Source: Thermoanaerobaculia bacterium | GTDB lineage: Bacteria > Acidobacteriota > Thermoanaerobaculia > UBA5066 | DNA: 64,000 nt | Direction: 5' to 3' | Assembly: GCA_963816185.1 (NCBI GenBank) | Contig: CAWFJJ010000030.1 | Coordinates: forward strand, 128,001 to 192,000 | Shown here: one piece after another, positions 15,162 to 58,674 of the stretch | Layout: each line of letters starts with the position of its first letter | Position numbering within the stretch: the stretch's first letter is position 1 | Translations under genes and position numbers: made by a program | Notes under the pieces: model-generated | What the model was told of the DNA's origin: nothing | The model's input: only the letters and a program-made list of their open reading frames with translations | Database searches by the model: none

Positions 15162-16493
15162 ATGCCAGTTCTGGAGACGACCGCCGAAGAAGAGATCCTC
15201 GGAGGATTGATGAAGGACGATTCGAGCCGGGCCAGAGCGCTCGTCTCTTCCGCTCCTGCCCTCGAAGCCCTTTGGAGCCAGCATTTCGCTCAGCGGATGC
15301 AGCGCATCAGGGCCTCGGTGATCCGTGAGCTCCTCAAGCTGACGGAAAAGCCGGATATCATCTCCTTCGGCGGTGGGCTGCCCGCACCCGAGGTCTTCCC
15401 CGTAGAGGAGATCCGCGCAGCCACGGACCGCGTCCTCACGCAGCACGGCACGATGGCGCTCCAGTACACGACGACCGAGGGCTATCGGCCTCTGCGCGAG
15501 CTGCTCATCCACCACATGGCGCGCTATGGAGTCGTCGTGCGCCCAGAGAACGTGCTCATCACGTCCGGCTCGCAGCAGGCGCTCGACCTCGTGGGCAAGC
15601 TCCTCATCAATCCTGGGGACCAGGTGCTCACCGAGGCGCCGACCTACCTCGGCGCGCTCCAGGCTTTCAACGCGTATCAGGCCGACTACCTCCCCGTGCC
15701 GATCGACGACGACGGCCTCGACCTCGACGTCCTCGAGAGACAGCTGCGCGCCGGTCCGAAGTTCCTGTACGTGCTGCCGAACTTCCAGAACCCCGGGGGG
15801 GTCACCCTCAGCCTCGACCGCCGCCGGCGAGTCGTCGAGCGGGCGGCTCACTACGGCATCCCGATCATCGAGGACGACCCCTACGGGCAGCTCCGATACG
15901 AGGGCGAGCACCTTCCACCCCTCGTCAAGATCGACGCCGAGCTCCGCGGCTGCGCGGACGGCGGGCGGGCGTTCGCGGGCAATGTGCTCTACATGTCGAC
16001 GCTCTCCAAGACCCTCGCGCCCGGACTGAGAATCGGCTGGGTCGTGGCGCCCGAAGCCGTCATCACGAAGCTCGTTCAGATCAAACAGGGCGCGGACCTC
16101 CACTCCTCGACCTTCTGCCAGTACGTGGCCTACGAAGTCGCGAGAGGCGGCTTCCTCGATCAGCACGTGCGCCGCATTCGCGCGGTCTACGGGGAGCGTC
16201 GGGAGGCCATGCTGTCCTCGCTCGCGCGGCATTTCCCGCACGGCGCCCGCTGGACGCGCCCGCAGGGAGGCCTGTTCCTTTGGGCCACGCTGCCGAAAGG
16301 CCTCGACACGACGGCTCTTCTCGAGGACGCGATCCGCGAGAAGGTCGCCTTCGTCCCGGGCGCGGCTTTCTACCCCTGCGGCGGAGGCGAGGAGACGATG
16401 CGCCTGAACTTCTCGTACGCGCCGCCGGACGTGATCGAGGAGGGGATCCGTCGGCTTTCGCAGGTCATCAAGGGAAAGACAAAGATTTCTTAG
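15162..16493 (+). CDS. PLP-dependent class I aminotransferase (2-aminoadipate transaminase-like)
   Basis: ISFGGGLP, NFQNPGG, EDDPYG, SKTLAPGLRIGW and MRLNFS. Confidence 0.92.
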   Translation: MPVLETTAEEEILGGLMKDDSSRARALVSSAPALEALWSQHFAQRMQRIRASVIRELLKLTEKPDIISFGGGLPAPEVFPVEEIRAATDRVLTQHGTMALQYTTTEGYRPLRELLIHHMARYGVVVRPENVLITSGSQQALDLVGKLLINPGDQVLTEAPTYLGALQAFNAYQADYLPVPIDDDGLDLDVLERQLRAGPKFLYVLPNFQNPGGVTLSLDRRRRVVERAAHYGIPIIEDDPYGQLRYEGEHLPPLVKIDAELRGCADGGRAFAGNVLYMSTLSKTLAPGLRIGWVVAPEAVITKLVQIKQGADLHSSTFCQYVAYEVARGGFLDQHVRRIRAVYGERREAMLSSLARHFPHGARWTRPQGGLFLWATLPKGLDTTALLEDAIREKVAFVPGAAFYPCGGGEETMRLNFSYAPPDVIEEGIRRLSQVIKGKTKIS

Positions 16494-16574
16494 AAAGGGT
16501 CATGAACGGGTCGCCGCTGCGGTGCGCCGACGGCTGTTGTTCGGCCACGACCCCACTCACCCTTCTAAGAAATC
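16484..16574. repeat. Bipartite inverted-arm element, copy E1
   Basis: GATTTCTTAGAAAGGGT ... ACCCTTCTAAGAAATC. The left arm supplies the aminotransferase TAG. Confidence 0.8.
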
Positions 16575-16611
16575 CCCGGTTCCCTCTCTCTTTCTAGATC
16601 TCTCCCCGTCC

Positions 16612-17391
16612 TTACGCCCCGTGGATTCCCTGCTCCGAGCTCGCGATGAAGTCGCGGAGGAGCTTCACGTCCTCGGACGTCGCGCCGAGCGCATCGAGCC
16701 CTGCCAGGAGGGCGGCCTTGTCGTGGCGGTGCTTGTGGAGAACGCGGTAGGCCTTCTGCAGAGCGGCCACGCGCTCTTTCGAGAACCCCTTCCGCGCGAG
16801 CCCTACGCTGTTCACCTTCCACGCCCTCACGTCGCGATCCGACGAAGTCCAGAGAAACGGCAGGACGTCGTGGTTCAGCCCGGCGAACGCCCCGACGAAG
16901 GCGTGCGGGCCGATCCTCAGGAACTGCCGGACACCGGCGAAGGCCCCGAGGATGACGTCGTCCCCGACGGCACAGTGACCTGCGAGCGAGGCGCCGTTCG
17001 CGAAGACCGTCCGGTTTCCGACGACGCAGTCGTGAGCCACGTGCGAATACGCCATGAACAGGTTGTCGTCCCCGATGATCGTGGTGCCGTGCCCGGTCAT
17101 CGTCCCGCGGTGAACCGTGCAGAACTCCCGAAACGTGTTGCGGTTGCCGATCGTCAGGGTCGTTGGCTCGCCTTTGTACTTGAGGTCTTGCGGGGGGCCT
17201 CCGAGAGCGGCCAGCGCGGCCACGCGGTTATCCTCTCCGAGCGTCGTCGGTCCTTCGATCACGGCGTGTGCTCCTACGGTCGTGCGCGCGCCGATCGTGA
17301 CGCGCGCGCCCACGATCGCGTAGGGGCCGATCTGAGCGGATTCGTGGACGGAAGCCGACGGGTCGACGATCGCGGTGACGTGTGTGGCCAT
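16612..17391 (-). CDS. lpxA: UDP-N-acetylglucosamine O-acyltransferase
   Basis: Hexapeptide repeats, PQDLKYKGE, HRGT and HVAHDC. Confidence 0.96.
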   Translation of the reverse strand: MATHVTAIVDPSASVHESAQIGPYAIVGARVTIGARTTVGAHAVIEGPTTLGEDNRVAALAALGGPPQDLKYKGEPTTLTIGNRNTFREFCTVHRGTMTGHGTTIIGDDNLFMAYSHVAHDCVVGNRTVFANGASLAGHCAVGDDVILGAFAGVRQFLRIGPHAFVGAFAGLNHDVLPFLWTSSDRDVRAWKVNSVGLARKGFSKERVAALQKAYRVLHKHRHDKAALLAGLDALGATSEDVKLLRDFIASSEQGIHGA

Positions 17392-17870
17392 CAGCGTCTC
17401 GCCGCCGGGATCCTGACGAGACTGCTCATGAACTCGCCCTCCGCGCACAGAGCGCCCTCGACGCGGGCTTCCGCCTTCATGCGCACCATGTTGGAGCGGA
17501 CCTGAACGATCTCGGCGTCGACGATGAGCTGGTCGCCCGGGAAGACCGGTCGCCTGAAGCGCGCCTTGTCGACGCCCGAGAGGTACATCAGGGTCTTCTC
17601 CGGCTCGTCCACGCCCGTGAAGAAGAGGCAGCCGCCGACTTGAGCCATGCACTCGAGGATGAGAACGCCTGGCATGACGGGATTCCCGGGAAAATGTCCC
17701 TGGAAGTACGGCTCGTTGACGGAGACGTTCTTGAGGCCCGTGACTTTCGAGCCTGGGACCACGGGACCTTCGCTGATGGAGACGATGCGGTCCACGAGCA
17801 GGAAGGGATAGCGGTGCGGCAGGAGCCGCATGATCTCCAGGATGTTCCTCCCCGTGTTCGATGCGCTCAT
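17391..17870 (-). CDS. fabZ: 3-hydroxyacyl-ACP dehydratase
   Basis: LPHRYPFLLVDRI and FQGHFPGNPVMPGVLILECMAQ. Confidence 0.97.
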   Translation of the reverse strand: MSASNTGRNILEIMRLLPHRYPFLLVDRIVSISEGPVVPGSKVTGLKNVSVNEPYFQGHFPGNPVMPGVLILECMAQVGGCLFFTGVDEPEKTLMYLSGVDKARFRRPVFPGDQLIVDAEIVQVRSNMVRMKAEARVEGALCAEGEFMSSLVRIPAARR

Positions 17871-18898
17871 TCCCCTGCTCCCTTGAGGAGACCCGCTTTC
17901 CGGGCGAGGCTGCGGACGAGACGCGCCGTCTCCGGCAGCCGGCGGAACTCGACGTGCGATTTCTGATAGGCGCGGTACGCGAAGGCGGGCGTCCCGTGGA
18001 GCGCTTCGCCATCCGGCACGTCCGCGCCGATGCCGCTCTGAGCCTGCGCTTTCACGCCGTTTCCGACCGCAATGTGGCCGGCGACGCCCACCTGCCCGCC
18101 GAGAACGACGCCATCTCCGACGACGGCCGAGCCGGCCACACCCACCTGCGCGCAGAGGACGTCGTGACGGCCGATGCGCACGTTGTGGCCCAGCATGACG
18201 AGGTCGTCGATCTTCGTGCCGGCGCCGACGGACGTGGTCTCGAGGGCTGCGCGGTCGATGCATGTGTTCGCGCCGACCTCGACGTCGTCGCCGATCGTGA
18301 CGCCGCCGACCTGAGGAATCTTCACGAGGCCCTTCTCCGTCGTCGCATAGCCGAACCCGTCCCCGCCGAGGATGGCGCCACTGTGGATCTCGACACGCTC
18401 CCCCAGAACAACGTCGTCGTACAGAACGACGTGGGGATGCAGCCACGAGCCCGCGCCCACCCGGCATCGGGCCCCGATGACTGCGTGAGCGCCTAAGATC
18501 GTGTTCGCCTCGATGCGCGAGTGGTCTCCGACGACGGCATAAGGACCGACCTCCGCGGACGGGTCGACGAGCGCGCCCGCATCGATCACGGCGGTCGCGT
18601 GAATGCCGGGCCGCGGAATCCGCGCCGGGTGAAAAAGGCGCAGCACGGGAATGAGAGCCGCGGACGGATCCGGAACTTCGATGACCGTCCGGCCGAGGAA
18701 GGCGGACGCCGACCGCGCCAGCAACGCGCCCGCCGCGGAGGCGGCCGCGCGCGGCAGGGCCCGTTCCTCGTTCACGAACGAGAGCGCGTCTTCGCCCGCG
18801 CCCTCGAGGGAGCGCACGCCGGAGAGTCTCCGTTCCCCATCGCCGACGACGCGTCCGCCGCAGGCGGCGGCCACTTCGGCGACGGAGAAGGACGCCAC
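17867..18898 (-). CDS. lpxD: UDP-3-O-acylglucosamine N-acyltransferase
   Basis: GGDGFGY, KIPQVG, IDRAAL and KIDDLVMLGHNV. Confidence 0.96.
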   Translation of the reverse strand: MASFSVAEVAAACGGRVVGDGERRLSGVRSLEGAGEDALSFVNEERALPRAAASAAGALLARSASAFLGRTVIEVPDPSAALIPVLRLFHPARIPRPGIHATAVIDAGALVDPSAEVGPYAVVGDHSRIEANTILGAHAVIGARCRVGAGSWLHPHVVLYDDVVLGERVEIHSGAILGGDGFGYATTEKGLVKIPQVGGVTIGDDVEVGANTCIDRAALETTSVGAGTKIDDLVMLGHNVRIGRHDVLCAQVGVAGSAVVGDGVVLGGQVGVAGHIAVGNGVKAQAQSGIGADVPDGEALHGTPAFAYRAYQKSHVEFRRLPETARLVRSLARKAGLLKGAGE

Positions 18899-18906
18899 GA
18901 CGGACG

Positions 18907-19524
18907 TTACTTCTTCGGGGCTGCCGGGGCCGCGGGCTTCGGCGCGGCGGCGGGCTTCGCCGTCGCGGGTGCGGGCGGCGCCGCGATCTGCGAGTTGAAC
19001 TTCGTGATGACGGCCTCCGTCAGGTCGACGGTCTTGTCGTCGGCGAAGAGCAGCCCGGAGTTGAACTTGTTGAAGACGAGGGCGTAACCCTGCTCGCGCG
19101 CGACCTCGTTGATGATGGGCATGATCCGCTTCTCGAGCTCGCCGAGCTCCTTGCGCTGCGATTCCTCGAGCTCGCGTTGCGCGTCGTCTTGGAAGCGCTT
19201 CAGATCGAGCGCTTTCGTCTGATACTCCTTCTGGAGCTTCTCCATCGCGTCCTCGGACAGGGACTTACCCTGGTCCTGAATCTTCTGCTCCATGTCCCGC
19301 AGCTCTTTCTGGCGCTTCTGCAGGTCTTCCTGCTTGGCCTGCTGGACCTTCTGGACGCGGGCCAGGCTTTCCTTGCCGATGGCAGATTCCTGGACGATCT
19401 TCTGGACCTCGATCACGCCGATCTTTCCGCCGGGCGTGTTCGCGGAGGGGGCTTGCGCGGAGGCGCCGCCGGCGAAAACTCCGAGGGCGAGGGCGCCGGC
19501 CGCGAGGGTGACGATGCGATTCAT
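18907..19524 (-). CDS. skp: OmpH/Skp periplasmic chaperone
   Basis: Signal peptide, KIGVIEVQKI, coiled coil and DLTEAVI. Lies between bamA and lpxD. Confidence 0.92.
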   Translation of the reverse strand: MNRIVTLAAGALALGVFAGGASAQAPSANTPGGKIGVIEVQKIVQESAIGKESLARVQKVQQAKQEDLQKRQKELRDMEQKIQDQGKSLSEDAMEKLQKEYQTKALDLKRFQDDAQRELEESQRKELGELEKRIMPIINEVAREQGYALVFNKFNSGLLFADDKTVDLTEAVITKFNSQIAAPPAPATAKPAAAPKPAAPAAPKK

Positions 19525-19601
19525 GGATGGAACTCCTTCGTTGGTTTTGGCCCCGGGTGAGGACGCCGAGTCCACGGAAACGGGGATCATACTGGAAATG
19601 G

Positions 19602-22166
19602 CTAGAACGTCGTCCCGATGGAGAACGCGAAATCCGTTCGGGACTCGGGCTGGATCACGTTACCCGCCTGGTCTTTGATGTCCTTCGGCGAGAGGTTGAT
19701 GCCGTAGATGAACCGCAGGGGTGCCTGGAAGATCGGCAGGAGGATCCTCATCTCGAGACCCGTCGACTTCCGCAGCGCTCCCAGGTCCGGGGATTGGCCC
19801 TCGAGCCACGTGTTCCCCGCGTCGAAAAAGAGCGCGACCTTGAGAGGGCCGGCCAGGGTATAGACGTATTCGGAGTTGAAGACGAGGAATCGGTCGCCCC
19901 CGATGAGCGCCCCGGCGCTCGTGAAGAACGCCTTGTTCTGGCTGTCCACCGGGAAGATGGATCCGAATTTGAAGCCGCGCACGGATCGGTCTCCGCCGAG
20001 GCGGTACCGCTCGAAAAGAGGGATCCGGCTGTCGTAGCCGATCTCGGCGGGGTCCTGTGCGCCGCTGTAGGCTCGAAGCAGACCGAGGTCGAGGTTGAAC
20101 GCGAAGTCGCCCCTCTTCCCGAAAGGGATGTATTTCGTAGCGTTCGCGCTCAGTTTGAAATATGAAAAGTCGCCTCCGAAGGGGCCTCCCGCGATCGAAA
20201 GCGAGACTCCGAACTTCGTTCCGCGGGTCGGATCGAACGGATCGTTGCGGCTGTCATAGCGGTACCCGGGCGTGACCGCCGACGTCTTGCCGGCATACGT
20301 CGCGAACGCGGTGGGCACCGTCCCGGCTCCCGGGGGGGGCGGGGGCGGATAGACCTGGTACGTGCTCGTCTGGTCCGTAAACCCGTAGAAGATCGACGCG
20401 AGGTCGAAGAGCCCCAGCCCGTACCCGAACGAGACGCTCGCACCCTTGCTCTTCTCGTCGAGGCCTCCCGCGACGTCGCTGTAGTCGAGGGTCCGGTTGA
20501 ACACCGAGCCGCCGACGGACATCCGCTGGTCGAGGAACCACGGCTCGGAGAACGAAATGTCGAAAAAGTTCGAGCGGTTGCCGCGCTGGAACTGGAGACC
20601 CAGGGTGTCGCCCCGGCCGAGGAAATTGCGCGTCGAGAACTGGAACTGTCCGAAGAGGCCGTCGAGCTGCGAATAGCCCGCTCCGAACTGGACCTCGTTG
20701 CGATTCGTGTCCGTCCCCTTGATCGAGACGTCGACGGTCTTCTTTTCCGAGTTGACCCGGAAATCCGGGTCTTCCTCGATCTTGTAGTAGCCGAGCTGCG
20801 TCACCTTGAACAGGCTCTTCTTGAAGGTCTCCATGTCCATGATGTCGCCTTCGAAAACCTGCAGCTCGCGTCTCAGCACCTTGTCGCGCGTCGTCTTGTT
20901 GCCCGTGAACTCGATCCGGCCGAGCCGGTACTGATCGCCCTCGGTGACCTTCACGGCGACGTCCACGACGTGGTTCGGCTTCTCGGTGTTCTCCGGATTC
21001 ATGAAGACGTAGATGTAGCCCCGGCTGCGGTAGATCGCGTCGATCGCCTTCATGCCGTCCGCGATCACGGCCCGGCTCATCGGCTTTCCGGGCTTGTACG
21101 GGAAGAACCGCTCGAGCGCTTCCGGCCTGAACACCGTCGACCCCTCGACGGTGACTTTGCCGAAGTAGAACCTCTCTCCCTCGACGATCGGGATCGTCAT
21201 CCTCACACGCCTCTTGATCTTCTCCGGGCGCTTCTCGGAAGGGTTTGTCACGAACACGTCGAGGATGGGATCCTTGATGACGACGTCCTTGTAGCCGACG
21301 TCCTGATAGCGCTTGCGCAGCGCCTCGACGTCCTCCTCGTACCCCGCCTGGTTGTACGTGGACTTGCTGTCGAAGAAGCGCCACCAGTGCGCCTGCTTCG
21401 TCTTCTTGAGCGTGTAGCGGAGCTTCGTCTGCCCGAAGACCGTGTTGCCCGAGAACTTGATCGATTCGATCTTGATCTTGTCGCCTTCATCGATCAGGAA
21501 GACGATGCGGCGCTGAAGGTCGGAGACGTTCTCGGTCGTGGCGTCGACCGCGGCGGAGCGGAATCCTTCGGCCTTGTATGCGTCGAGAAGAACGGTCTTG
21601 GCTTTCGCCACGTCGCGCAGCGAGACCGGCGCGCCGACGCGGATCTCGGCCTTTCCTTCCTTGAGCTTGTCCTTGAGCTGCGAAGTCGTGAGCTTCTTGT
21701 TGCCTCGGAACTCGAGGTCCGCGACGGTGGGCCGTTCCACCACGGTCGCGACGATCACGACGCCTGCGGGGGACGTCTCCTTTTCCAGCGTCACGTCTTC
21801 GAAGAGCCCGGAATCCCAGAGCTTGTTGAAATTCCGCTTGATGAGGTCTTCGTCGTAGGGGTCGCCGACTTTGACGCCGAGATAGAAGCCGACCGTCTCG
21901 GGAGCGGTGGTCTTTCCGCCGTGCACGACGATCTGCGCGATCTTCGGCCTGTTCGCGGAGGCCGCGGGCTCGGGCGCGATCGCCACGGACGCTTTCGGCA
22001 TCGTGCCCGTGAGCGGCGACTCGGGCCGGGTCGCGCCGAAGATGCTTTCGCCGGCGGCCGCGGGAGAGGGCGTGGGCGTCGGAGTCGGCGCCTGCGCGTG
22101 GACCGTCTCGCGACCGAGAAAGACCGCCAGAACCCCTGCGAGAGCTCCCGCCCGTATGAAGCGCAC
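19602..22166 (-). CDS. bamA: Outer membrane protein assembly factor
   Basis: POTRA repeats, RNFLGRG, SVRGF and a C-terminal FSIGTTF. Start is approximate. Confidence 0.95.
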   Translation of the reverse strand: MRFIRAGALAGVLAVFLGRETVHAQAPTPTPTPSPAAAGESIFGATRPESPLTGTMPKASVAIAPEPAASANRPKIAQIVVHGGKTTAPETVGFYLGVKVGDPYDEDLIKRNFNKLWDSGLFEDVTLEKETSPAGVVIVATVVERPTVADLEFRGNKKLTTSQLKDKLKEGKAEIRVGAPVSLRDVAKAKTVLLDAYKAEGFRSAAVDATTENVSDLQRRIVFLIDEGDKIKIESIKFSGNTVFGQTKLRYTLKKTKQAHWWRFFDSKSTYNQAGYEEDVEALRKRYQDVGYKDVVIKDPILDVFVTNPSEKRPEKIKRRVRMTIPIVEGERFYFGKVTVEGSTVFRPEALERFFPYKPGKPMSRAVIADGMKAIDAIYRSRGYIYVFMNPENTEKPNHVVDVAVKVTEGDQYRLGRIEFTGNKTTRDKVLRRELQVFEGDIMDMETFKKSLFKVTQLGYYKIEEDPDFRVNSEKKTVDVSIKGTDTNRNEVQFGAGYSQLDGLFGQFQFSTRNFLGRGDTLGLQFQRGNRSNFFDISFSEPWFLDQRMSVGGSVFNRTLDYSDVAGGLDEKSKGASVSFGYGLGLFDLASIFYGFTDQTSTYQVYPPPPPPGAGTVPTAFATYAGKTSAVTPGYRYDSRNDPFDPTRGTKFGVSLSIAGGPFGGDFSYFKLSANATKYIPFGKRGDFAFNLDLGLLRAYSGAQDPAEIGYDSRIPLFERYRLGGDRSVRGFKFGSIFPVDSQNKAFFTSAGALIGGDRFLVFNSEYVYTLAGPLKVALFFDAGNTWLEGQSPDLGALRKSTGLEMRILLPIFQAPLRFIYGINLSPKDIKDQAGNVIQPESRTDFAFSIGTTF

Positions 22167-26532: not shown

Positions 26533-26618
26533 GATTTTCTTAGGGGGAAAAGAGAAGAGGAAGATCTTCTTAGAAGGGGAAGAGGGCGCAGGCCACCTGC
26601 TGACCTTTCTAAGCATCT
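26533..26618. repeat. Bipartite inverted-arm element, copy E2 (two left arms)
   Basis: GATTTTCTTAGGGG (26533), GATCTTCTTAGAAGG (26563) ... CCTTTCTAAGCATC (26604). The right arm supplies the lysS TAG. Confidence 0.75.
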
Positions 26619-28240
26619 TTATCTTTCTTCGGTCTCATCAATGGAAACAAAATCACGTCGCGAATGGACGGCGAGTTCGTGAAGAGCATCGCGAGGCGGT
26701 CGATGCCGACGCCTTCGCCCGCCGTGGGCGGCATCCCGTACGAAAGCGCCTCGACGTAGTCCTCGTCGTAGAGCATCGCCTCCTCGTCGCCCTTGCCGCG
26801 CTCTTTCACCTGTGCGCGGAACTTCTCCGCCTGCTCGTCGGGGTCGTTCAGCTCTGAGAACCCGTTCGCGACCTCCATCCTCCCGATGAACAGCTCGAAG
26901 CGGTCGGCGGTATCCGGGTCGCCCGGCTTCGTCTTCGAGAGCGGCGAAATCTCCGCCGGATAGTCGACGATGTACGTCGGCTGCAGGAGCCGTTTCTCGA
27001 CGACGGCGCCGAAGATTTCGGCGAGGAGCTTCCCTTTCGAATCGCCGAAACGCTCGACGGACTCCACGCCATAGCGTTCGGCTGTTTTTCTTAGAAGGTG
27101 GAGGTCGCTGAGGGTCTCACGAGTGACGGCGGGGCGCTCGCCCGCCCGCACGGGACCATTCGAAGAAATCTTCTCTTCTTCTTTCTTCCTGTCTTCTTCC
27201 GCCGCCGGGATGTTCTCGAGAATCGCGTCCACCATGGAGATCCGCTTGAACGGCGCCTTGAGCGAGATCGTCTCGTTGCCCCACTCGAGCTCGGTCGTCC
27301 CGAGGATCTCCCGCGCGGCGCCCGTGAGAAGCTCCTCCGTGAGCGCCATCTGGTCTCGCGCGTCGGCGTAGGCCGTGTAGAACTCGAGCATCGTGAATTC
27401 GGGATTGTGGTGCGTGGAGATCCCTTCGTTCCGGAAATTGCGGTTGATCTCGTAGACCCTCGGGAAGCCGCCGATGACGAGCCGCTTGAGATAAAGCTCG
27501 GGAGCGATGCGCAGGAAGAGGTCTAGGTCGAGCGCGTGGTGATGCGTCACGAACGGGCGCGCGGCCGCGCCCCCCGCGAGCGTCTGCATCATCGGCGTCT
27601 CCACCTCGACGAAGCCGCGCGCGTCGAAGAAGCGGCGAATGAACCCCACGATCTTCGCCCGGATCTCGAACGTCCTGCGCGTCTCCGGCGAGACGACGAG
27701 GTCGACGTAACGCTGCCGGTACTTCCGCTCGACGTCCGTCAGGCCGTGCCATTTTTCCGGCAGCGGCCGCAGGGACTTCGAGAGGAAATCGAGGGAGCCC
27801 GCCCTCACGGACAGCTCTCCGGTACGGGTCCGGAAGACCGTTCCGGCGACTCCCACGTGGTCGCCGAGGTCGAGCTGCTCCAGAAGGTCCCAGTCGCCCG
27901 GGCGAAGCGCGTCCTTCTTGAGGTAAGCCTGCACGCGGCGGACGCCGTCCGAGAGATCGAGGAAGGTCGCCTTCCCCATCTTGCGGATCGCGAGGATGCG
28001 GCCCGGCACGCGCACGAACCGCTCGGCTGAGGGTTCAGCGTCGAGGGCGGCGGCGTCCAGGGGCGACCACCTCGCGACGACGTCCGACACGAGATGCGTG
28101 GGATCCCAGCGATTCGGGTACAGCGCGCGCCCGAGGGCCGCGATGCGCGCGCGCGCGGCGCGGCGGTTCGCGATCTGCTCGGGGAGCTCGAGCTCCCGGG
28201 GAGGTACCGGCGGGGCGGCGGCTTTAGGAGTTTCGGCCAT
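26609..28240 (-). CDS. lysS: Lysine--tRNA ligase (class II)
   Basis: KYRQRYVDL, LRIAPELYLKRL, FRNEGIS.HNPEFT and GIDRL. Confidence 0.97.
   Translation of the reverse strand: MAETPKAAAPPVPPRELELPEQIANRRAARARIAALGRALYPNRWDPTHLVSDVVARWSPLDAAALDAEPSAERFVRVPGRILAIRKMGKATFLDLSDGVRRVQAYLKKDALRPGDWDLLEQLDLGDHVGVAGTVFRTRTGELSVRAGSLDFLSKSLRPLPEKWHGLTDVERKYRQRYVDLVVSPETRRTFEIRAKIVGFIRRFFDARGFVEVETPMMQTLAGGAAARPFVTHHHALDLDLFLRIAPELYLKRLVIGGFPRVYEINRNFRNEGISTHHNPEFTMLEFYTAYADARDQMALTEELLTGAAREILGTTELEWGNETISLKAPFKRISMVDAILENIPAAEEDRKKEEEKISSNGPVRAGERPAVTRETLSDLHLLRKTAERYGVESVERFGDSKGKLLAEIFGAVVEKRLLQPTYIVDYPAEISPLSKTKPGDPDTADRFELFIGRMEVANGFSELNDPDEQAEKFRAQVKERGKGDEEAMLYDEDYVEALSYGMPPTAGEGVGIDRLAMLFTNSPSIRDVILFPLMRPKKDKDA
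27085..27171. repeat. Bipartite inverted-arm element, copy E3, inside lysS
   Basis: TTTTTCTTAGAAGG (27085-27098) ... CCATTCGAAGAAATCT (27156-27171). Confidence 0.7.
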
Positions 28241-35482: not shown

Positions 35483-36531
35483 TCAGCGGCCAGAAGCGAT
35501 TTCTTCGAAAGCCGAGAGCGCGCGGTCGACGTCCGCGTCGCCGACGTCGGCGTGCGTGACCATGCGGATGGAGTCCAAGCGCCTGCGGCTCCCGCGAGGA
35601 CACCACGCGATCGAAGCTTCGCCACGACCCCGGCCGGGTCGCCCCATTCACCTTCCAAGAAGAAGAACAGAATGTTCGTCTCGACGTCCGCAGGATCGAT
35701 CCGAAGTCCGCGAATCCCCGCGAGTCCCTCCGCGAGCTTCTTCGCCCGAACATGGTCCTCGGGCAGGCGCGAACGCTCGTCCTCCAGCGCCACGAGCGCT
35801 GCCGCCGCGATGACGCCGACCTGGCGCATTCCGCCCCCGAAGAGCTTGCGGACGCGACGCGCCTCGGCGACGAAGGCCTTCGAGCCCGCCACGGCGCTAC
35901 CCACGGGCGCGCGCAGGCCCTTCGAGAAGCACGTCATGACGGAGTCGAAGCCTTCCGCGAGGGACGCCTCGGAGACGCCGAGCGCTGCCGCCGCGTTCCA
36001 CAGGCGGGCGCCGTCGAGGTGCGTCGCGAGGCCCTTCTCCTTCGCGAGGGCGAGGAGCGGGTCGACGACCGAGCGCGGGAGGACGGCGCCGCCGGCGAAG
36101 TTGTGCGTGTTCTCGAGGGCGAGAACGGACGTGCGCGGCAGGTAGTAGACCGTGTCGGGCCTGATCCACGCCGCGACCTGCTCTCTCGTCATCCGGCCGC
36201 GCGCCGCGTCGACGGGGCGCGGCAGGAGGCCCGAGAGCGCGGCCATGCCCGCCATCTCGTAGTGGAAGATGTGGCTCTTTCCCTCGAGGATGACTTCCGT
36301 GCCCGAGCGAGCGTGCACCCGCAGGGAAAGCTGGTTGCCCATGGAGCCGCTCGGGACGAAGAGAGCCGCCTCCTTGCCGAGAACCTCGGCCGTCCTCTCC
36401 TCGAGGCGCCGGACGGTCGGGTCCTCGCCATAGACGTCGTCGCCGACCTCCGCCTCGGCCATGGCGCGCCGCATTTTCGGGGTCGGCTTCGTGACGGTGT
36501 CGGAGCGAAAGTCGGAAACGGGGTCCGTCAT
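35483..36531 (-). CDS. ltaE: Low-specificity L-threonine aldolase; frameshift near 35580
   Basis: DFRSDTVT, HLDGARLWNA and CFSKGL.APVGS. The alternative frame gives IRMVTHADV...EEIASGR stop at 35483. Confidence 0.9.
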
Positions 36532-36539: not shown

Positions 36540-37082
36540 TCATCCCAGAACGAGCGCGGCGAGTGCCAGAAGGAAGCCGAAGAGATCGAGGCGGGCCGCC
36601 CGGCGCCGCGCGGCATCGGCGCGACTCACCCACGGCGGTCGAAGATTCTCTTCGAAGGTCAATGATTTTTCGCGGTAGTAGCGCTCCCGAGGAAGCACGA
36701 CCATTACGGCGGAGACGAGAGCCGCGAGCAGCAAGAAGATCGCCACCGCCCGCCACACGTGGCGCGGCGGGAGGCTCGAGCCGAGGACCTGCGTCTCCAG
36801 CAGCACCCCCACGAGAAGCGCGCCCGCCGCGACGAACTTCGCCTTCGCGAGCTGCTCCCTTTCTTCGTCTTCCCCTTCTAAGAGAATCCCCAGCGCCGAG
36901 GCCCGGTGCGCACCCGCTTTCTCGCTCCCGTCCCGCTCAGCCGTTCCCTCTCCTTCTTCTCTTTCTAAGAGAATCTTCTTCTTTCTTCTGACAAGAAGAG
37001 CCAGAGGAACCCCGATGAAGACCGCGAGCCCCAGCCCGATCAGGACGCGCGACGCCTCGAGGAGAAAGTCCGGCAGCGACAT
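36540..37082 (-). CDS. Hypothetical membrane protein
   Basis: About four hydrophobic segments. TACACT -10 lies 7 nt before the ATG. Confidence 0.7.
   Translation of the reverse strand: MSLPDFLLEASRVLIGLGLAVFIGVPLALLVRRKKKILLEREEGEGTAERDGSEKAGAHRASALGILLEGEDEEREQLAKAKFVAAGALLVGVLLETQVLGSSLPPRHVWRAVAIFLLLAALVSAVMVVLPRERYYREKSLTFEENLRPPWVSRADAARRRAARLDLFGFLLALAALVLG
36872..36977. repeat. Two same-orientation arms of the dispersed element inside a CDS
   Basis: CCCCTTCTAAGAGAATC (36872) and CTTTCTAAGAGAATCTT (36961). Confidence 0.6.
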
Positions 37083-38452: not shown

Positions 38453-38676
38453 GCCTCCGCGAGCATCGCCTCGATCACGGGCCGGCAGCGCTCGCCCGCG
38501 CACTCCCCCGTCGTGCAGCCCGTCGTGCGCGCCACGTCCTCGATCGTCCGCGCCCCGCGGTCGATCGCCTCTTTCACGCGCGGATACCGGATCGTGTTGC
38601 AGATGCACACGGGCCGGAATTTCAGCAGCATGAGCTGGCGTTTCTCTTCGGTGGTCAGTGGTCGGGCTGCGGACAT
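38437..38676 (-). CDS. BFD-like [2Fe-2S]-binding protein
   Basis: VCICNTI...AIDRGARTIEDV...TGCTTGECAGERCRPVI. Confidence 0.82.
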   Translation of the reverse strand: MSAARPLTTEEKRQLMLLKFRPVCICNTIRYPRVKEAIDRGARTIEDVARTTGCTTGECAGERCRPVIEAMLAEAQAKT

Positions 38677-38705
38677 GCGATTAAGGATTTCTAGAAAGAT
38701 TTTCG

Positions 38706-38807
38706 GATGAAGATTTTCTTAGAAGGGTGTGTGTGGCCGGGGCCTCGAGAAGAGCTGCGGCCGCACAGAACTGGGAACGCTCGACCACCTTCTAAGAAAT
38801 CTTCGTC
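38706..38807. repeat. Bipartite inverted-arm element, copy E4
   Basis: GATGAAGATTTTCTTAGAAGGGTG ... CACCTTCTAAGAAATCTTCGTC. About 22 bp near-perfect inverted arms. Confidence 0.85.
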
Positions 38808-38828
38808 TTTCTCCCCTCTCCCTCTTCC

Positions 38829-39341
38829 TCAAAAATCCACCGTGTAGCGGATCGACGCGCGGTCGCGCACACGGTCGAGGTAGACGACGCCGTCGAGGTG
38901 GTCGCTTTCGTGGAGGACGACGCGCGCGTGGAAGTCGTCCGCGACGAAGGTGACGGGTTTCCCGGACGTATCCAGCGCAGTCACGCGAATGCTCTTCGGG
39001 CGCGGGACCTTCGCCGCGAGAAACGGCACGGAGAGGCAGGCCTCGAAATCCTCGTCTTCCGTCTTGTCGAGCACCTCGAACGTGGGGTTCACGAGGAGCG
39101 TGGGCGCGACCTCGAGGACGTCCTTGCCGCGTTTCTCGCCGTGGACTTCGTAGAGCACCACGCGGAGGCCCGTCGACACCTGCGGCGCGGCGAGACCCGT
39201 ACCGTGGTACTCGACCATCGTCTCCATCATGTCCTCGAAGAAAGCCCGGAACCGGCCCTTCTTGAGGTCGTGCGCCTCGATTTCCGACGCGCGTTTTCTG
39301 AGGATCGGCGAGCCGAGCTTGGCGACTTTCAGAATGGCCAC
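38829..39341 (-). CDS. def: Peptide deformylase
   Basis: GTGLAAPQV, EACLSV and HESDHLDG. Confidence 0.95.
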   Translation of the reverse strand: MAILKVAKLGSPILRKRASEIEAHDLKKGRFRAFFEDMMETMVEYHGTGLAAPQVSTGLRVVLYEVHGEKRGKDVLEVAPTLLVNPTFEVLDKTEDEDFEACLSVPFLAAKVPRPKSIRVTALDTSGKPVTFVADDFHARVVLHESDHLDGVVYLDRVRDRASIRYTVDF

Positions 39342-51202: not shown

Positions 51203-51290
51203 CTTTTCCTAGCAGGGTTTCTCAGAAGACATCGGTCACCGTCGACGCCGCGGCGCCGCGGATCGTCCGAATTGCCTTCCAAGAAACTCT
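51203..51290. repeat. Bipartite inverted-arm element, degenerate copy E5
   Basis: TTTTCCTAGCAGGG and GTTTCTCAGAAG ... CCTTCCAAGAAACTCT immediately downstream of rnc. Confidence 0.55.
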
Positions 51291-51291
51291 T

Positions 51292-52702: not shown

Positions 52703-52706
52703 GAAG

Positions 52707-53935: not shown

Positions 53936-54001
53936 ACCCTCACGACCCTTTCGGGTCAGGGGATTTTAAGTCCCCTGCGTCTGCCATTTCGCCACTCCGG
54001 C
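53914..54001 (-). tRNA. tRNA-Leu(TAA)
   Basis: GCCGGAGTGGCGAAATGGCAGACGCAGGGGACTTAAAATCCCC, long variable arm, CCA end. Confidence 0.95.
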
Positions 54002-54046
54002 GCGGAGAAGCTTACGCCGGGAGGCGGGCGCGAGGGAGGACGGGAT

Positions 54047-54122
54047 TGGAGGCGACGGTCGGAGTCGAACCGACGAATGAGGCTTTTGCAGAGCCTTCCC
54101 TTAACCACTTGGGTACGTCGCC
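54047..54122 (-). tRNA. tRNA-Cys(GCA)
   Basis: GGCGACGTACCCAAGTGGTTAAGGGAAGGCTCTGCAAAAGCCT...GGTTCGACTCC...CGCCTCCA. Confidence 0.95.
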
Positions 54123-54159
54123 GTCCCGCTCGGAGGCGGGATGTTAGCAGGCCGAGGCC

Positions 54160-55131
54160 TCAGCTCGACATCGCGCGCGCGAGGACGAACAGCGACGGAT
54201 CGAGGGGCTTCGTCTTCCCGGCGACGTCGTCGAGAGGCGTGGCTGCCACGACCCCCCCGAGCTGGCCGACGAGGATGCCGGACTCCCCCGCCGCGAGGCG
54301 CTGGACTGCCGCTGCGCCGAGGCGCGTCGCGAGGAGCCGATCGAAGGCGCCCGGCGAGCCCCCGCGCTGCACGTGGCCGAGCTGCGTGACGCGCAAGTCG
54401 AAGCCGAGGCGCTTCTCGTTCTCCCGGAAATACTGCGCGAGCGCCCGGGCGTTCTGACGCGCACCCTCCGCCACGACCACGATGGCGTGCCTCTTCCCGC
54501 GCTCACGCGCGACGTAGAGGTCCTGCGCGAGCTCCTCGAGGTTGGTCTCCATCTCGGGGATGACGATCGCCTCGGCTCCTCCCGCGATTCCCGCCATGAG
54601 CGCGAGATAACCGCAATCGCGGCCCATGACCTCGACGAGGAACGCGCGCTCGTGAGAAGACGCCGTGACCTTCAGCCGGTCGATGGCCTCCAGGGCGATG
54701 TTGAGGGCCGTGTCGACGCCGATCGTGATGTCCGAGCCCGGAAGGTCGTTGTCGATCGTGGAGGCGACGCCAACGACGGGGAATCCGGCCTTCGCGAGCG
54801 CGTTCGCCCCCATTTGAGAGCCGCTGCCGCCGATGACGACGAGGCATTCGACGCCGCGGGCCCTGAGGACGCCCAGCGCCTGCTCGCGTCCGACTGTCGT
54901 CTTGAATGCGTCGCAGCGCGCGCTCCCGAGGATCGTCCCGCCCTGCTGGATGATGCCGCCCACGTCGCGCGGGCCGAGCGGCGAAAGCTCGCCGCCGAGG
55001 AGTCCCGCGAAGCCGTGATGCACGCCGAAGATGCTCCAGCCCTGCGCGATCCCCGCGCGAACGACGGCGCGGATCGCCGCGTTCATGCCCGGCGCGTCAC
55101 CTCCGCTCGTCAGGACGGCCATGCTTCTCAT
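54160..55131 (-). CDS. pfkA: ATP-dependent 6-phosphofructokinase
   Basis: LTSGGDAPGMNAA, GGTILGSAR, TIDND, EVMGR and LGHVQRGG. Confidence 0.93.
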   Translation of the reverse strand: MRSMAVLTSGGDAPGMNAAIRAVVRAGIAQGWSIFGVHHGFAGLLGGELSPLGPRDVGGIIQQGGTILGSARCDAFKTTVGREQALGVLRARGVECLVVIGGSGSQMGANALAKAGFPVVGVASTIDNDLPGSDITIGVDTALNIALEAIDRLKVTASSHERAFLVEVMGRDCGYLALMAGIAGGAEAIVIPEMETNLEELAQDLYVARERGKRHAIVVVAEGARQNARALAQYFRENEKRLGFDLRVTQLGHVQRGGSPGAFDRLLATRLGAAAVQRLAAGESGILVGQLGGVVAATPLDDVAGKTKPLDPSLFVLARAMSS

Positions 55132-55153
55132 GCGGACTCCCTTCGTTCCCCGC

Positions 55154-56503
55154 TCAAGCGGGGCGGACAAACGGCCATTCTGCCTTCCTTCGCGCCATCA
55201 CGAGATACGCGATGACGCCGGCGCCGAGGACGACGAGCCCCGTCAGCTTGAACCCTTTCTCGGGCGAGAGAAGGACGAAGCCCCAGAGAACGAGCGCGAC
55301 GAGCGCCGGCAGCGGGTAGAGCCACATGCGGAAAGGGCGCGCGAGATCCGGCCGCGTCTTTCGGAGGACGAGCGCCGCGGCGACCTGGGCGATGAACGGG
55401 ATGACCGCGCGAATCGAAACGATGGCCGAGACGACGACCCTGAGGTCCAGGAAAGAGAATACCGAGGCCGCGCCGCCGAGCGCGACGAGCGCGACGACCG
55501 GATAGCCTTCGGTCGGATGCAGGCGCGCGAACGCCGGGAAGAAGTTTCCGTCCCGCGCGGCCGCGAAGAGGATGCGCGAGTAGCCGAGCGTCAGCGAGAA
55601 GACCGACGCGAACGCGGTCCACAGGATGAGGCCCGTCACGAGGCGTGCGACGGGCCGGCCCGCGAGTACCGCGACGAAGTCCGCGACCGTGGATTTCGAG
55701 CCCATGGCCTCGGCCATCGGCAGGACGGAGACGATGCAGGCATTCATGAGGATATAGAGGACGGCCACCGAGAGGATCGAGATGACGATGACACGCGGGA
55801 TCGTCTTCGTCGGCTCGACGATCTCCTCCGCGAGGTAGCAGACGTTGTAGTAGCCGAGGTAGTCGTACACGGCGAGGATGAGGGCCAGTCCGAGCCCGCC
55901 GAGGACTCCGGCGGGCGGCGCGATTCCCGGCGCGGAGACGACGGGCGCCTCCCAGAACCGGAACGCCGCGAGCTTCAGGTGCGGGAGGCCGAGTCCGATC
56001 ACGATCCCCAGCGTCGAGAGGACGCCGATCCAGAGGACGACCGAAAACCGCCCGATCGCACCGATCCGGCGCATGAGGAGGAGAGTGACGGCGACGCACA
56101 ACAGGGACGCCACGGGCGCCTCCCACCTGTCGGGAATCTGCGGAAAGACGAAGTGGAGATAGCGCGAGAAGCCGATCGCCCCCGAAGCCATCGAGAGCGG
56201 AGCCGAGAAGATGATCTGGAAGAGGAACAGGAACGACACGAGCCGGCCCCAGCGCGCGGGACCGTACGCCTCTCGCAGGAACGCATACGAGCCTCCCGCG
56301 CGCGGCAGCTCGGCCGACAGCTCCGCCGTGACGAGCCCGTCCGCGATCGCGAGGACGGCACCGAGGATCCAGGCGCCGAGCGCGCGGCCGCCGCCCATCG
56401 CGGCGAGGATGAGGGGAAGGGTCACGAAGGGCCCGATCCCCACCATGTCGATGATGTTCAGGGCGGTGCCCTGCCAGAGCCCGATCTCGCGCTTGAGCGC
56501 CAT
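55154..56503 (-). CDS. APC-family amino acid permease
   Basis: DMVGIGPF, AELSAELPRAGGSY, about 12 TM segments and RPFRMWLYP. Confidence 0.92.
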   Translation of the reverse strand: MALKREIGLWQGTALNIIDMVGIGPFVTLPLILAAMGGGRALGAWILGAVLAIADGLVTAELSAELPRAGGSYAFLREAYGPARWGRLVSFLFLFQIIFSAPLSMASGAIGFSRYLHFVFPQIPDRWEAPVASLLCVAVTLLLMRRIGAIGRFSVVLWIGVLSTLGIVIGLGLPHLKLAAFRFWEAPVVSAPGIAPPAGVLGGLGLALILAVYDYLGYYNVCYLAEEIVEPTKTIPRVIVISILSVAVLYILMNACIVSVLPMAEAMGSKSTVADFVAVLAGRPVARLVTGLILWTAFASVFSLTLGYSRILFAAARDGNFFPAFARLHPTEGYPVVALVALGGAASVFSFLDLRVVVSAIVSIRAVIPFIAQVAAALVLRKTRPDLARPFRMWLYPLPALVALVLWGFVLLSPEKGFKLTGLVVLGAGVIAYLVMARRKAEWPFVRPA

Positions 56504-56530
56504 GAGCGGGAGAGAATAGCCGTAATCGGC

Positions 56531-57370
56531 ATGCCGAGACTCTCCCCTTCGTTCGTCCTCCCGACGGCGCTCGTTCTCCTCCACGCGCCTGTTCTCGCGC
56601 AGGGTCCCGCGGCTACGCCTCAGATCCAGGACAACAGCTTCCTCATCGAGGAGGCCTACAACCAGACGCCGGGAGTCGTCCAGACGATCCAGACGTTCTC
56701 GCGGATGTCCGGATCAGGCGACTGGGTCTACACCCTGACGCAGGAATGGCCGGTTCCAAGGGAGACGCACCAGCTCAGCGTCACGATTCCGGTGCAGGGC
56801 GTCACGACGGACACCGGGCGGGCGCGGGGCCTCGGCGACGTCGCCCTCAACTACCGTTACCAGCTCGTCGGAAACGGCGACGCCAGGGTCGCCGTCAGTC
56901 CGCGGCTCACGCTCCTCGTTCCGTCCGGCGATCGCACGCGGTCTCTCGGCGCCGGCGGTCTCGGCATCCAGGTCAGCCTCCCGCTCAGCCTCGTTCTCTC
57001 CGATCATTTCGTCACGCACTGGAACGCCGGAGTCACGTTTACGCCCGCGGCGACGGACGTCTCGGGCGAAACGGCGAGCCTCGCCACCTGGAACGCCGGC
57101 CAAAGCGTCGTCTGGCTCGCTCAGCCGCGCTTCAATCTGCTCCTCGAGACCGTGATGACTTCCACGCAGGCCTTCGCGGACCGCGGCGGCACCGAACGCC
57201 GGACCGATGTGCTGGTTTCTCCCGGTGCACGCTTCGCGTTCAATCTGCCGGACAACCTCCAGATCGTCATCGGCCTCGCGGCGCCGATCGACGTCGGCAC
57301 GAGCCACGGGCAGAACAGCGTCTTCCTGTATTTCAGCGTCGAGCTGCCCTTCTGGCACCCGGCGCAGTGA
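56531..57370 (+). CDS. Putative outer-membrane beta-barrel protein
   Basis: Signal peptide, DNSFLIEEAYNQ, GLGDVALNYRYQ, alternating beta strands and a C-terminal YFSVELPF. Confidence 0.75.
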   Translation: MPRLSPSFVLPTALVLLHAPVLAQGPAATPQIQDNSFLIEEAYNQTPGVVQTIQTFSRMSGSGDWVYTLTQEWPVPRETHQLSVTIPVQGVTTDTGRARGLGDVALNYRYQLVGNGDARVAVSPRLTLLVPSGDRTRSLGAGGLGIQVSLPLSLVLSDHFVTHWNAGVTFTPAATDVSGETASLATWNAGQSVVWLAQPRFNLLLETVMTSTQAFADRGGTERRTDVLVSPGARFAFNLPDNLQIVIGLAAPIDVGTSHGQNSVFLYFSVELPFWHPAQ

Positions 57371-57377
57371 ACCGCCC

Positions 57378-58553
57378 TCAGCCCCGCTTCAGGACGTCCT
57401 TCGCGATCGTGTTGAGCTGCATGAAGGAGGTCCCCTCGTAGATCTTTCCGATCTTCGCGTCGCGGTAAAGCTTCTCGAGCGGGTAGTCCTTCACGTAGCC
57501 GTAGCCGCCGAGGAGCTCGAGGCCCCGCGACGTGCACATCTCGGCGACCTCGGAGCCCTTGAGCTTCGCGATCGCGGCCTCCCGCGCGAACGGCAGGCCG
57601 TTCTCCTTCAGGCGCGCCGCGTTGTAGACGGCGAGGCGGGCGCATTCGAGCTCCATGTCCATGCGGGCGAGCTCGTGCTGCACGGCCTGGAACTGCGCGA
57701 GCGGCTGTCCGAACTGTCGGCGTTCCCTCACGTATTTCGCCGTGTAGTCGAGCGCGGCGCGAGAGATGCCGACCATCTGCGCACCAATGCCGATGCGGCC
57801 CTCGTTCAGCGTCTCGATGGCGATCTTATAACCCTCGCCCACGTTGCCGACGACGTTCTCGGCCGGCACCTCGAGGTCCTCGAACGCGAGCGCGAGCGTC
57901 GAGGACGCACGGATTCCGAGCTTGTCCTCCTTCTTGCCCTTGTGGAATCCCTTCCACTGCGACTCGATGAAGAAAGCGGTGATGCCCTTGTAGCCCTTGC
58001 TCTTGTCGACGGTCGCGAAGACGAGGAAGAGCTCGGACTCCAGGCCGTTCGTGATCCAGAGCTTTTCGCCGTTCAGGAGGTAGCGGTCGCCCTTCGGCGT
58101 GGCCGTCGTCGCGAGGGCGAACGCGTCGGAACCCGACCCGGCTTCCGACAGAGCATACGAAGCGACTTTCTTCTTCGCGAGCTGCGGAAAGTACTTCTTC
58201 TGCAAAGCCGGCGAGGCCCAGCGCTTGATCGCGTTGTTCACGAGCGTGTTCTGGACGTCCACGACGACGGCGCAGGCCGCGTCGACGCGGGCGAGCGCCT
58301 CGATGATGGCGATGGACGTGCCGAAGTTCGCGTCGAGGCCGCCGAACTCCTCCGGGATCTCGATTCCCATGAGATCGAGATCGAAGAATTTCCGGATGAG
58401 GTCGGGGTCCATGACGTTCGCCCGGTCCATCTCGCCCGACTTGGGGCCGATCGTCTCCAGGGCGAAGTCATAGACGCCTTCCGCAAGCTCCCGCTCGTGG
58501 TCGGAGAGGACCGACACAGGCGGAATCGCGCGCGTCTCAGTCGTAACAGTCAT
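57378..58553 (-). CDS. Acyl-CoA dehydrogenase (short/branched-chain-like)
   Basis: YALSEAGSGSDA, NGEKLWITN, KLGIRASST, RRQFG and KIYEGTS. Confidence 0.94.
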   Translation of the reverse strand: MTVTTETRAIPPVSVLSDHERELAEGVYDFALETIGPKSGEMDRANVMDPDLIRKFFDLDLMGIEIPEEFGGLDANFGTSIAIIEALARVDAACAVVVDVQNTLVNNAIKRWASPALQKKYFPQLAKKKVASYALSEAGSGSDAFALATTATPKGDRYLLNGEKLWITNGLESELFLVFATVDKSKGYKGITAFFIESQWKGFHKGKKEDKLGIRASSTLALAFEDLEVPAENVVGNVGEGYKIAIETLNEGRIGIGAQMVGISRAALDYTAKYVRERRQFGQPLAQFQAVQHELARMDMELECARLAVYNAARLKENGLPFAREAAIAKLKGSEVAEMCTSRGLELLGGYGYVKDYPLEKLYRDAKIGKIYEGTSFMQLNTIAKDVLKRG

Positions 58554-58593
58554 CAAAAAATCCTCCACGACTGTAGAATATCTGAAAGAGGGA

Positions 58594-58674
58594 GAATTTC
58601 TTAGAAGGCGAATGCACTAGCCGCCAGCCGGCTTGCGCGACGTGTTTCACCGGGCGCGGGCACCCTCTAAGAAG
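58594..58674. repeat. Bipartite inverted-arm element, copy E6
   Basis: GAATTTCTTAGAAGG (58594) ... CCCTCTAAGAAG (58663). Confidence 0.75.

Follow-up and report, generated by a model that had tools for sequence, protein, structure and literature searches.

Dispersed pairs of inverted arms around variable spacers in a genus of Thermoanaerobaculia

Arm pairs in the window and in the genome

We analysed a stretch of 64,000 nucleotides (referred to here as the window) from a Thermoanaerobaculia bacterium (assembly GCA_963816185.1, contig CAWFJJ010000030.1, positions 128,001 to 192,000), in which a short arm with a TTCT-N-AGAA core recurs in facing pairs that enclose unrelated sequence. An initial annotation had described six such elements, E1 to E6, all of which proved to lie at the coordinates claimed for them, and a scan for arms located others that were absent from the earlier list (35500/35651, 36647, 36874 and 36961). 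The elements of the window are the following:

E1, 16486..16572: arms 16486-16497 (+) and 16561-16572 (-), between the convergent aminotransferase and lpxA-like genes.
E2, 26536..26616: arms 26536-26547 (+) and 26566-26577 (+), facing a degenerate right arm at 26605-26616.
E3, 27087..27168: arms 27087-27098 (+) and 27157-27168 (-), in frame within the lysS coding sequence.
Previously unlisted pair, 35500..35662: degenerate arms at 35500/35651 with an outer span of 163 bp, from the arm scan.
Composite, 36647..36972: + arm at 36647 and - arms at 36874-36885 and 36961-36972, from the arm scan.
E4, 38666..38828: arms 38715-38726 (+) and 38788-38799 (-), with a degenerate arm at 38686-38699 and purine-/pyrimidine-rich flanks.
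E5, 51205..51286: a degenerate pair adjoining the 3' end of the RNase III gene.
E6, 58597..58674: arms 58597-58608 (+) and 58663-58674 (-), lying between the terminator of a TonB-type outer-membrane protein gene and the start of an acyl-CoA dehydrogenase gene.

Arms supply the ends of two of these genes, as had been proposed: the TAG stop codon of the aminotransferase gene (16491-16493) falls in the left arm of E1, and that of lysS (26609-26611, minus strand) is provided by the degenerate right arm of E2, an element that starts at this stop codon and takes up the entire spacer between lysS and an FtsX-type permease gene. E3 is translated within lysyl-tRNA synthetase (LysRS) as ...EEEKISSNG...DLHLLRK..., and E4 occupies the DNA from the def stop codon to the start codon of the following gene. 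This small gene, separated from def by E4 (38665-38829), starts with ATG here and with TTG in the related genome G011. The TonB-type outer-membrane protein gene is closely followed by a canonical GC-rich terminator hairpin (gcgccggggc...gccccggcgc, 58678-58702), which adjoins E6 at its right arm. An Rfam search of the window returned four tRNAs and nothing else.

The genome from which the window was taken (G000; 5,088,052 bp in 30 contigs, GC 0.672, 94.9% complete) contained 149 exact copies of TTTCTTAGAAGG, 73 on the plus and 76 on the minus strand, and 843 matches with up to two mismatches; the reversed pattern, which served as a control, occurred twice. Within the window, the 12-mer TTTCTTAGAAGG was matched 18 times (two mismatches or fewer) against an expectation of 1.33, and none of 100 shuffles attained this number. 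The over-representation of the arms is thousands-fold, and they are balanced between the strands (423 versus 430). A profile of 413 arms showed conservation from about position -5 to +20, with the consensus R-R-W-TTTCTTAGAAGG-kGAArrGG and no conservation beyond +28, and the conserved arm of about 22-24 nt thus consists of TTTCTTAGAAGG followed by kGAArrGG. TTCT-N-AGAA is the palindromic core of the arm and its sole self-complementary part. The same position profile bears out the earlier remark that the outer flanks are purine-rich on the left and pyrimidine-rich on the right.

The genome-wide scan with a histogram of pair distances, which the initial annotation had suggested, gave a positive result: 256 facing pairs were found within 400 bp, compared with 23 true back-to-back pairs, and their spacing peaked near 75 bp. 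Arms were scored with a 26-nt weight matrix, which defined a set of 412 good arms, and a facing partner was one scoring above 10 bits at a distance of 250 bp or less; 77% of the good arms had such a partner on the inner side and 1.7% on the outer side. The outer length of the pairs has its mode at 86-87 bp, and the centre-to-centre spacing has a peak at 74-78 bp inside a broad peak of 68-88 bp, with a tail that extends past 300 bp. A preferred spacing was therefore confirmed, and the idea of one fixed at about 70 bp was not. Arm pairs on the same strand likewise preferred a spacing of about 72-88 bp. The density of elements is about one pair per 12-18 kb. The centre base strictly follows the orientation of the arm (no arms with the wrong centre, as against 42 and 38), indicating that the arms are inverted and not direct copies. 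The spacings showed no helical phasing at 10.5 bp (p 0.19), and correction for the 11 periods tested removed what had been a faint signal at 9-9.5 bp (p about 0.007).

The histogram also contained a spike at 93 bp that comes from paralogous Ser/Thr kinase genes. In at least nine of these paralogues, the kinase domain contains arm-like sequences whose place is fixed and which are always 104 bp apart; they read EEFFEGEE ... SFEEIP followed by a run of Ser (C24, 602898-622894; C4, 8673; C23, 2634 and 5303; C5, 136940; C8, 329057). Four contigs of the genome (C29, C6, C12 and C18) had 0-0.56 arms per 10 kb, compared with 1.0-2.9 on the other large contigs; they could be recently acquired DNA or contamination of the bin.

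Arms within genes and turnover between species

Gene positions were obtained with a simple codon-bias caller of our own (4004 genes, 82.6% coding). Pfam families were detected in all 8 of the ORFs that were chosen in the window and in none of 5 rejected overlapping ORFs, and also in 19 of 20, 13 of 14 and 10 of 11 members of three further gene sets. When 414 arms with no more than one mismatch were assigned to these calls, 243 were intergenic and 171 (about 40%) lay within genes, the arm density being about 6.7 times higher in intergenic DNA. The intergenic arms were distributed over tandem (171), divergent (43) and convergent (26) spacers, and since this split roughly tracks the total lengths of the three classes (530, 203 and 128 kb, respectively), we see no bias to promoters or gene ends.

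The arms inside genes made use of all six reading frames (31, 23 and 42 in the forward frames; 38, 20 and 17 in the reverse). Two of the frames read the TAG or TAA of the arm itself; here the arm marks the end of the gene in 12 cases and has a sense codon instead in 31. Pfam families were recognised in 19 of 20 host genes sampled, and the hosts include AcrB, UvrD, UvrA, an AddA-like helicase, RNase R, ThrRS, AspRS, an ABC-F protein, CcmF and alpha-2-macroglobulin, besides LysRS (E3). Comparison with solved structures and outgroups places the arms of LysRS, RNase R and UvrA in inserted or variable stretches. In the LysRS that contains E3, residues 383-405 are an insertion without counterpart in E. 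coli LysU; the UvrA element lies within a stretch of about 69 residues, only 2 of which match solved UvrA. The RNase R site has 33-34 residues and no arms at 12 outgroup loci, and at 18 loci of the genus it has 30-90 residues, with at least one arm in 16 of them.

The lysS locus was compared in a similar manner. A 38-residue segment without arms was present at 10 of 11 outgroup loci (8 of 9 if G019 and G024, which are included in the outgroup counts, are left out), and neither arm of E3 was found at any of the 11. Within the genus, the HLLRK-type arm was present at all 19 loci, and the upstream arm, with its Glu/Lys-rich flank, at 15 of the 19; at one locus (L013) the upstream arm was present in one more, partial copy, and another locus (L015) had an additional internal arm. 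In two lysS loci (L014 from G008 and L028 from G006), a 1-nt insertion in the interior of the element shifts the frame, with the flanking lysS sequence intact. These insertions could be consensus errors in the metagenome-assembled genomes (MAGs) or real frameshifts.

The motif was detected in every sampled genome of this uncultured soil genus (18 of 18 and 21 of 21), in 1 of 21 genomes from other genera of the family, and in none of 48 genomes from two other families (none of 46 without G019 and G024). The sole sister-genus genome with the motif (G055) has five copies, among them the orthologous element of RNase R. Apart from a trace in that one neighbouring genome, the family is restricted to a single genus. 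The paired pattern had no matches in viral contigs; among the matches listed for the 14-mer alone, there was one per contig, scattered over many contigs, and these are taken as chance occurrences.

Empty orthologous sites, which had been named as a check on the elements, were looked for in relatives and found. Of 21 orthologous loci that could be placed for E1, 5 contain the pair, 1 contains a solo palindrome (GATTTCTTAGAAATC) and 12 have a short spacer free of arms; a single arm among other repeats was present at 1 locus, and the remaining 2 have other repeats only. The solo site, which is in G003, is better read as a deletion between the arms. We also considered whether pairs originate when a solo palindrome is split by a central insertion, and rejected this because ATTTCTWAGAAAT occurs 0 times in this genome. 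Two of the E1-orthologous spacers (L038 from G007 and L039 from G008) hold a different long palindromic repeat, ccggatgtccgg...tcaaggg / cccttga...ccggacatccgg, and a third (L049 from G005) holds another GC-rich repeat, which is found in L039 as well. It seems that the convergent spacer containing E1 is a hot spot at which several families of repeats occur.

E4 is a lineage-specific gain of 163 bp. It is missing from G003 and G011, where the gap between the def stop codon and the next start codon is 3 nt, and two contigs of the soil run X5 skip 155 and 151 nt at this position. The inserted DNA reaches 30-40 nt outside the arms of E4. The turnover of the elements was surveyed in about 330 kb of syntenic DNA from three genomes. 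G003 lacks one 33-bp arm unit of E2; the pair at 35500..35662 has a decayed left arm and a retained right arm in both G003 and G011; the last 87-bp arm unit of the composite (36885-36972) is present in this genome only; and G011 has a collapsed E5 and has lost the right arm and the interior of E6 by deletion. Contig C30 has 62 element clusters, of which 39 could be placed in a relative and 23 in neither. Only 13 of the 39 keep arms in both relatives; in at least one relative, each of the others is missing, decayed or of a different length, either shorter or longer. Elements with clean presence or absence begin purine-rich and finish pyrimidine-rich. Between species, then, elements are gained, lost, collapsed between their arms and duplicated by arm units. 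An inversion switch was rejected, since orthologous interiors are collinear at 0.78-0.81 identity and show no sign of flipping.

Constraint on the arms and properties of the interiors

If the two arms of an element had to match each other, arms within a pair should be more alike than arms of different pairs. The identity of the cores was 0.815 within and 0.814 between pairs (251 pairs), and arms of the same pair were no more alike in any segment examined, so that changes in one arm are not compensated in the other. The origin of pairs by fold-back or inverted duplication was likewise rejected, as the flanks of the arms are no more alike within than between pairs. The rates of change in different parts of the elements were compared at sites picked in one genome by comparing the other two, a procedure that avoids ascertainment bias. 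In 56 clusters, the core had an identity of 0.889, the inner flank of 0.846, the interior of 0.783 and the flanks of 0.81, and this ranking was the same whichever of the three genomes was used for ascertainment. The absence of co-variation, together with the slow change of the cores, indicates that each arm is held to the consensus and not to its partner.

The interiors were mostly unrelated, and GC-rich, much as the initial annotation had described them: those of 196 pairs produced 48 BLAST matches to each other, and their GC content was 0.73. Near-identical interiors, in the cases that were checked, sit within larger duplicated segments that are 95-97% identical over more than 900 nt. Such segments were seen between contigs C14 (4046) and C24 (179005) and between C13 (2595) and C30 (304353), and these inter-contig duplications probably reflect variants of the strain or a redundant assembly of the MAG. 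Four long elements with spans of 219-330 bp (C25, 104916; C28, 439662; C24, 129878; C30, 539966) have a common inner stretch of 60-124 nt at 85-92% identity, the likeness ending inside the arms; the interior may here contain a second, nested repeat.

Codon periodicity was 0.22 in the interiors, compared with 0.465 in coding DNA and 0.26 in other intergenic DNA. Interiors located within genes showed a weak periodicity of 0.29, which fits inserted DNA of a non-coding-like character. We therefore rejected the possibility that each element carries a small ORF, with a Shine-Dalgarno-like AGAAGG, an ATG and a stop codon in the far arm: the interiors have no coding signal, and the spacings have no 3-nt periodicity (p 0.21). 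Capture of the interior from elsewhere in the genome was also rejected, as the interiors of E1, E4 and E6 have no matches in their own genome. No excess folding of the interiors was detected (mean z -0.13 versus 0.00 in controls; n=163, p 0.30), and a palindrome spanning the whole site, as in integron attC-type sites, was not found, the interiors folding no better than the controls.

Nature of the family and its relation to known repeats

On balance, we lean towards reading the elements as small dispersed repeats that are non-autonomous and form one lineage-specific family; each has two inverted arms and, between them, a spacer with no fixed sequence or length. Each arm would be the recognition site of a putative sequence-specific DNA-binding protein, and the TTCT-N-AGAA core suggests that such a protein would bind as a dimer. 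This protein may be the enzyme that installs or moves the elements, or it may be a host factor that now uses the arms. The spacer would be neutral filler, in which case the copies are expected to look unrelated, and deletions could arise through slippage or recombination between the near-palindromic cores.

The best reading of its affinities places the family nearest to dimers of repetitive extragenic palindromic (REP) sequences and to Rickettsia palindromic elements (RPEs). In those parts of Di Nocera et al. (2013; PMC3733652) on which we draw, REP dimers have spacers of 20-100 bp that may vary in sequence and size, singletons are remnants of dimers, copies within genes include repair genes such as uvrA, copy numbers vary between relatives, the units have a GTAG or CGTC tag at one end, and the CGTC-1 elements of Neisseria correspond to dRS3. 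As far as that account extends, REP dimers (head-head or tail-tail), bacterial interspersed mosaic elements and REP doublets forming hairpins (REPINs), which occur in Proteobacteria and others, resemble our elements in having short conserved units, mostly inverted pairs, variable spacers, singletons, copies within genes and copy numbers that differ among relatives; in particular, the units studied here are mostly inverted dimers with spacers of tens of bp. Unlike REPs and REPINs, they have no hairpin in a single arm (four of four single arms with their flanks folded no better than shuffles, z -0.6 to +1.6) and no linked REP-associated tyrosine transposase (RAYT), and about 40% of the arms are intragenic. 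Neither a GTAG nor a CGTC tag, as the tags are given in those parts of the paper (PMC3733652), is present in the 413-arm consensus.

RPEs, according to the portion of a review used here (PMC10969869), are about 150 bp long and have a conserved sequence that encodes a conserved peptide. The likeness to RPEs as treated there lies in the in-frame insertion into unrelated, often essential genes and in the translation as extra peptide segments; the differences are that the arms alone are conserved in our elements, that all six frames are used and that there is no conserved peptide. [quoted passage not shown] In contrast to MITEs, no conserved interior, target duplication or parent insertion sequence (IS) was found here, and the conserved arms are internal to the variable purine- or pyrimidine-rich flanks. 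The family misses the defining features of REP and REPIN (hairpin, tag and RAYT), of MITEs (body, duplication and IS) and of RPEs (peptide). Of the REPIN- or MITE-like family proposed earlier, the dispersed character and the species-variable sites were upheld; assignment to REPINs fails on the single-arm fold and the absence of a flanked RAYT, and assignment to MITEs on the interiors, the target sites and the parent IS.

In Neisseria, the 20-bp repeat dRS3 brackets variable segments of 50-150 bp in the Neisseria intergenic mosaic elements (NIMEs), which form intergenic arrays with inner segments that make up repeat families, and dRS3 is a target for phage integration. Going by this general description, a repeat of about 20 bp around variable segments is a point of likeness, and the arrangement of NIMEs as intergenic arrays is a difference. 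The view that the element is not a described one agrees with our literature searches, which did not cover supplementary files: the motif string was returned only from unrelated papers, no paper joined Thermoanaerobaculia with 'inverted repeat', and the searches on Acidobacteria together with MITEs, and on RPEs, brought up nothing about this element.

A number of observations weigh against a dispersed repeat family. The first group concerns the enzyme: no mobilising or arm-binding protein was found in this genome or in related genomes. Genes of the Y1/RAYT type (PF01797) were absent from this genome (0 of 1) and present in 3 of 26 genomes of the genus; the three loci hold 1, 0 and 1 arm-like matches, and no arm pair flanks them. 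Of 31 relatives, 4 had DDE_Tnp_1 and 7 had DDE_3, and the three IS copies that were inspected had either unrelated ends or no arm within 2 kb. The search for a RAYT or an IS sharing the arm ends, proposed in the initial annotation, thus yielded neither a linked RAYT nor an IS with arm ends, in assemblies that are MAGs, so that an IS may be unassembled. Ordinary metabolic or unassigned genes make up the 14 that lie between far arm pairs, with no transposase or recombinase among them, and also the 11 flanked by arms on both sides (12.4 expected by chance), none of which is recombinase-like. The second group concerns the insertions themselves. Where presence or absence is clean, 8-42 nt of unrelated spacer have given way to the element; neither E4 nor 3 other clean sites of gain or loss showed a target duplication; and this genome has no near-identical copies at different loci, hence no sign of recent copying. 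Finally, the gene caller is crude, its calls having held wherever Pfam was applied, and the comparison in which the rate of change of arm cores is about half that of interiors takes in clusters of similar length only, from three genomes.

Arm pairs about 2290 bp apart were considered as possible ends of an IS and rejected, as the four regions concerned have no mutual homology and contain housekeeping genes. Separately, contigs C1 and C2 of G011 carry an IS with a 388-aa DDE_Tnp_1 ORF in nine identical-scoring copies; the one copy examined has 22-nt ends, CTAGCAGGCTGCTGAAGAAAGG, unrelated to the arms.

The lysS locus provides the remaining points that speak against a repeat family moving as a unit. 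The HLLRK arm overlays residues that can be aligned with the outgroup, with the length unchanged, and AVTRETL, part of what would be the interior of E3, is ancestral lysS sequence. These features fit the acquisition of single arms, or the replacement of a patch, better than a jumping unit. The HLLRK arm of lysS came without a change in length, and insertions of 70-160 bp account for E1, E4 and others; E4 looks like the insertion of a unit and the lysS arms look as if they were acquired singly around host sequence. One could envisage that a putative lineage-confined DNA enzyme or architectural protein installs or maintains the 24-nt arms singly, each facing an arm already present about 75 bp away, with any host or filler DNA in between. 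An arms-only element of this kind, in which the inherited unit would be a protein site and not a transposon body, would explain at once why interiors are unrelated, why target duplication is missing, why ancestral lysS sequence lies between two arms and why arms are constrained without being paired; we regard it as an unlikely variant all the same.

Alternatively, the arms might have a host function as sites for a nucleoid-associated or regulatory protein, two dimers of which would bridge or loop about 75 bp, and be kept by selection at each locus instead of spreading as selfish DNA. The arms are held independently to a consensus, the cores are conserved across species and have the palindromic TTCT-N-AGAA form, the motif is present in all sampled members of the genus, and same-strand pairs have an equal preferred spacing (about 72-88 bp), all of which would be in accord with such sites. 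The paired protein-binding site suggested in the initial annotation is consistent with these data insofar as the arms are held independently; the DNA wrapping of 7 helical turns suggested with it is unsupported, because the spacing is broad and lacks 10.5-bp phasing. Against a host function stand the location of about 40% of the arms in coding sequence, including that of essential enzymes, the nature of the elements as insertions of up to 163 bp carrying their own flanks, a placement that tracks intergenic length, the same absence of phasing and the lack of a candidate protein in our searches, and we consider it improbable.

An element acting at the RNA level, with arms and flanks forming a long hairpin in the mRNA that would terminate or stabilise the transcript or be a site for RNase III, in the manner of REP, ERIC or Correia elements, appears still more doubtful. 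Intact E4 and E1 fold far better than shuffles (z -4.8 and -3.5, respectively) and could form long hairpins, E2 and E4 occupy spacers between operon genes, and there are precedents in REP and Correia elements in the parts of PMC3733652 and PMC10969869 drawn on here. However, E6 folds no better than shuffles (z +0.9), the interiors are without structure, the arms do not covary and are equally common on both strands, many copies lie in genes, and neither convergent nor tandem gene ends are preferred. The long-range RNA stem considered in the initial annotation is in line with the folding of E4 and E1, and at odds with the absence of compensatory change, the share of arms in coding sequence and the lack of a preference for gene ends.

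The uptake signal sequences and DNA uptake sequences of Pasteurellaceae and Neisseriaceae accumulate by drive. By analogy, the arm might be a DNA uptake sequence or a motif favoured by biased recombination, and a short motif over-represented thousands-fold on both strands alike (423 and 430) throughout a genus, present within genes in all frames, in weakly constrained loops and at conserved orthologous sites, with an HLLRK arm that arose in lysS without a change in length, would agree with this; we nevertheless think it very improbable, as about 75% of the arms face a partner at a preferred spacing, the density is low, and many arms come with insertions of 70-160 bp and characteristic flanks.

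If the elements are a family of non-autonomous dispersed repeats, as we are inclined to believe, they add to the known families one from an uncultured class of Acidobacteriota that lies outside the REP/RAYT and MITE/IS schemes. They also offer a large-scale case in which essential enzymes tolerate translated repeat insertions, a phenomenon best known from Rickettsia. The conservation of the cores without compensation from arm to arm points to a putative trans-acting protein that is directly searchable. For the annotation of these genomes, it is relevant that the arms break or extend gene calls, as seen in 12 stop codons and in many low-complexity peptide stretches, and the arms are a marker of this genus in metagenomes.

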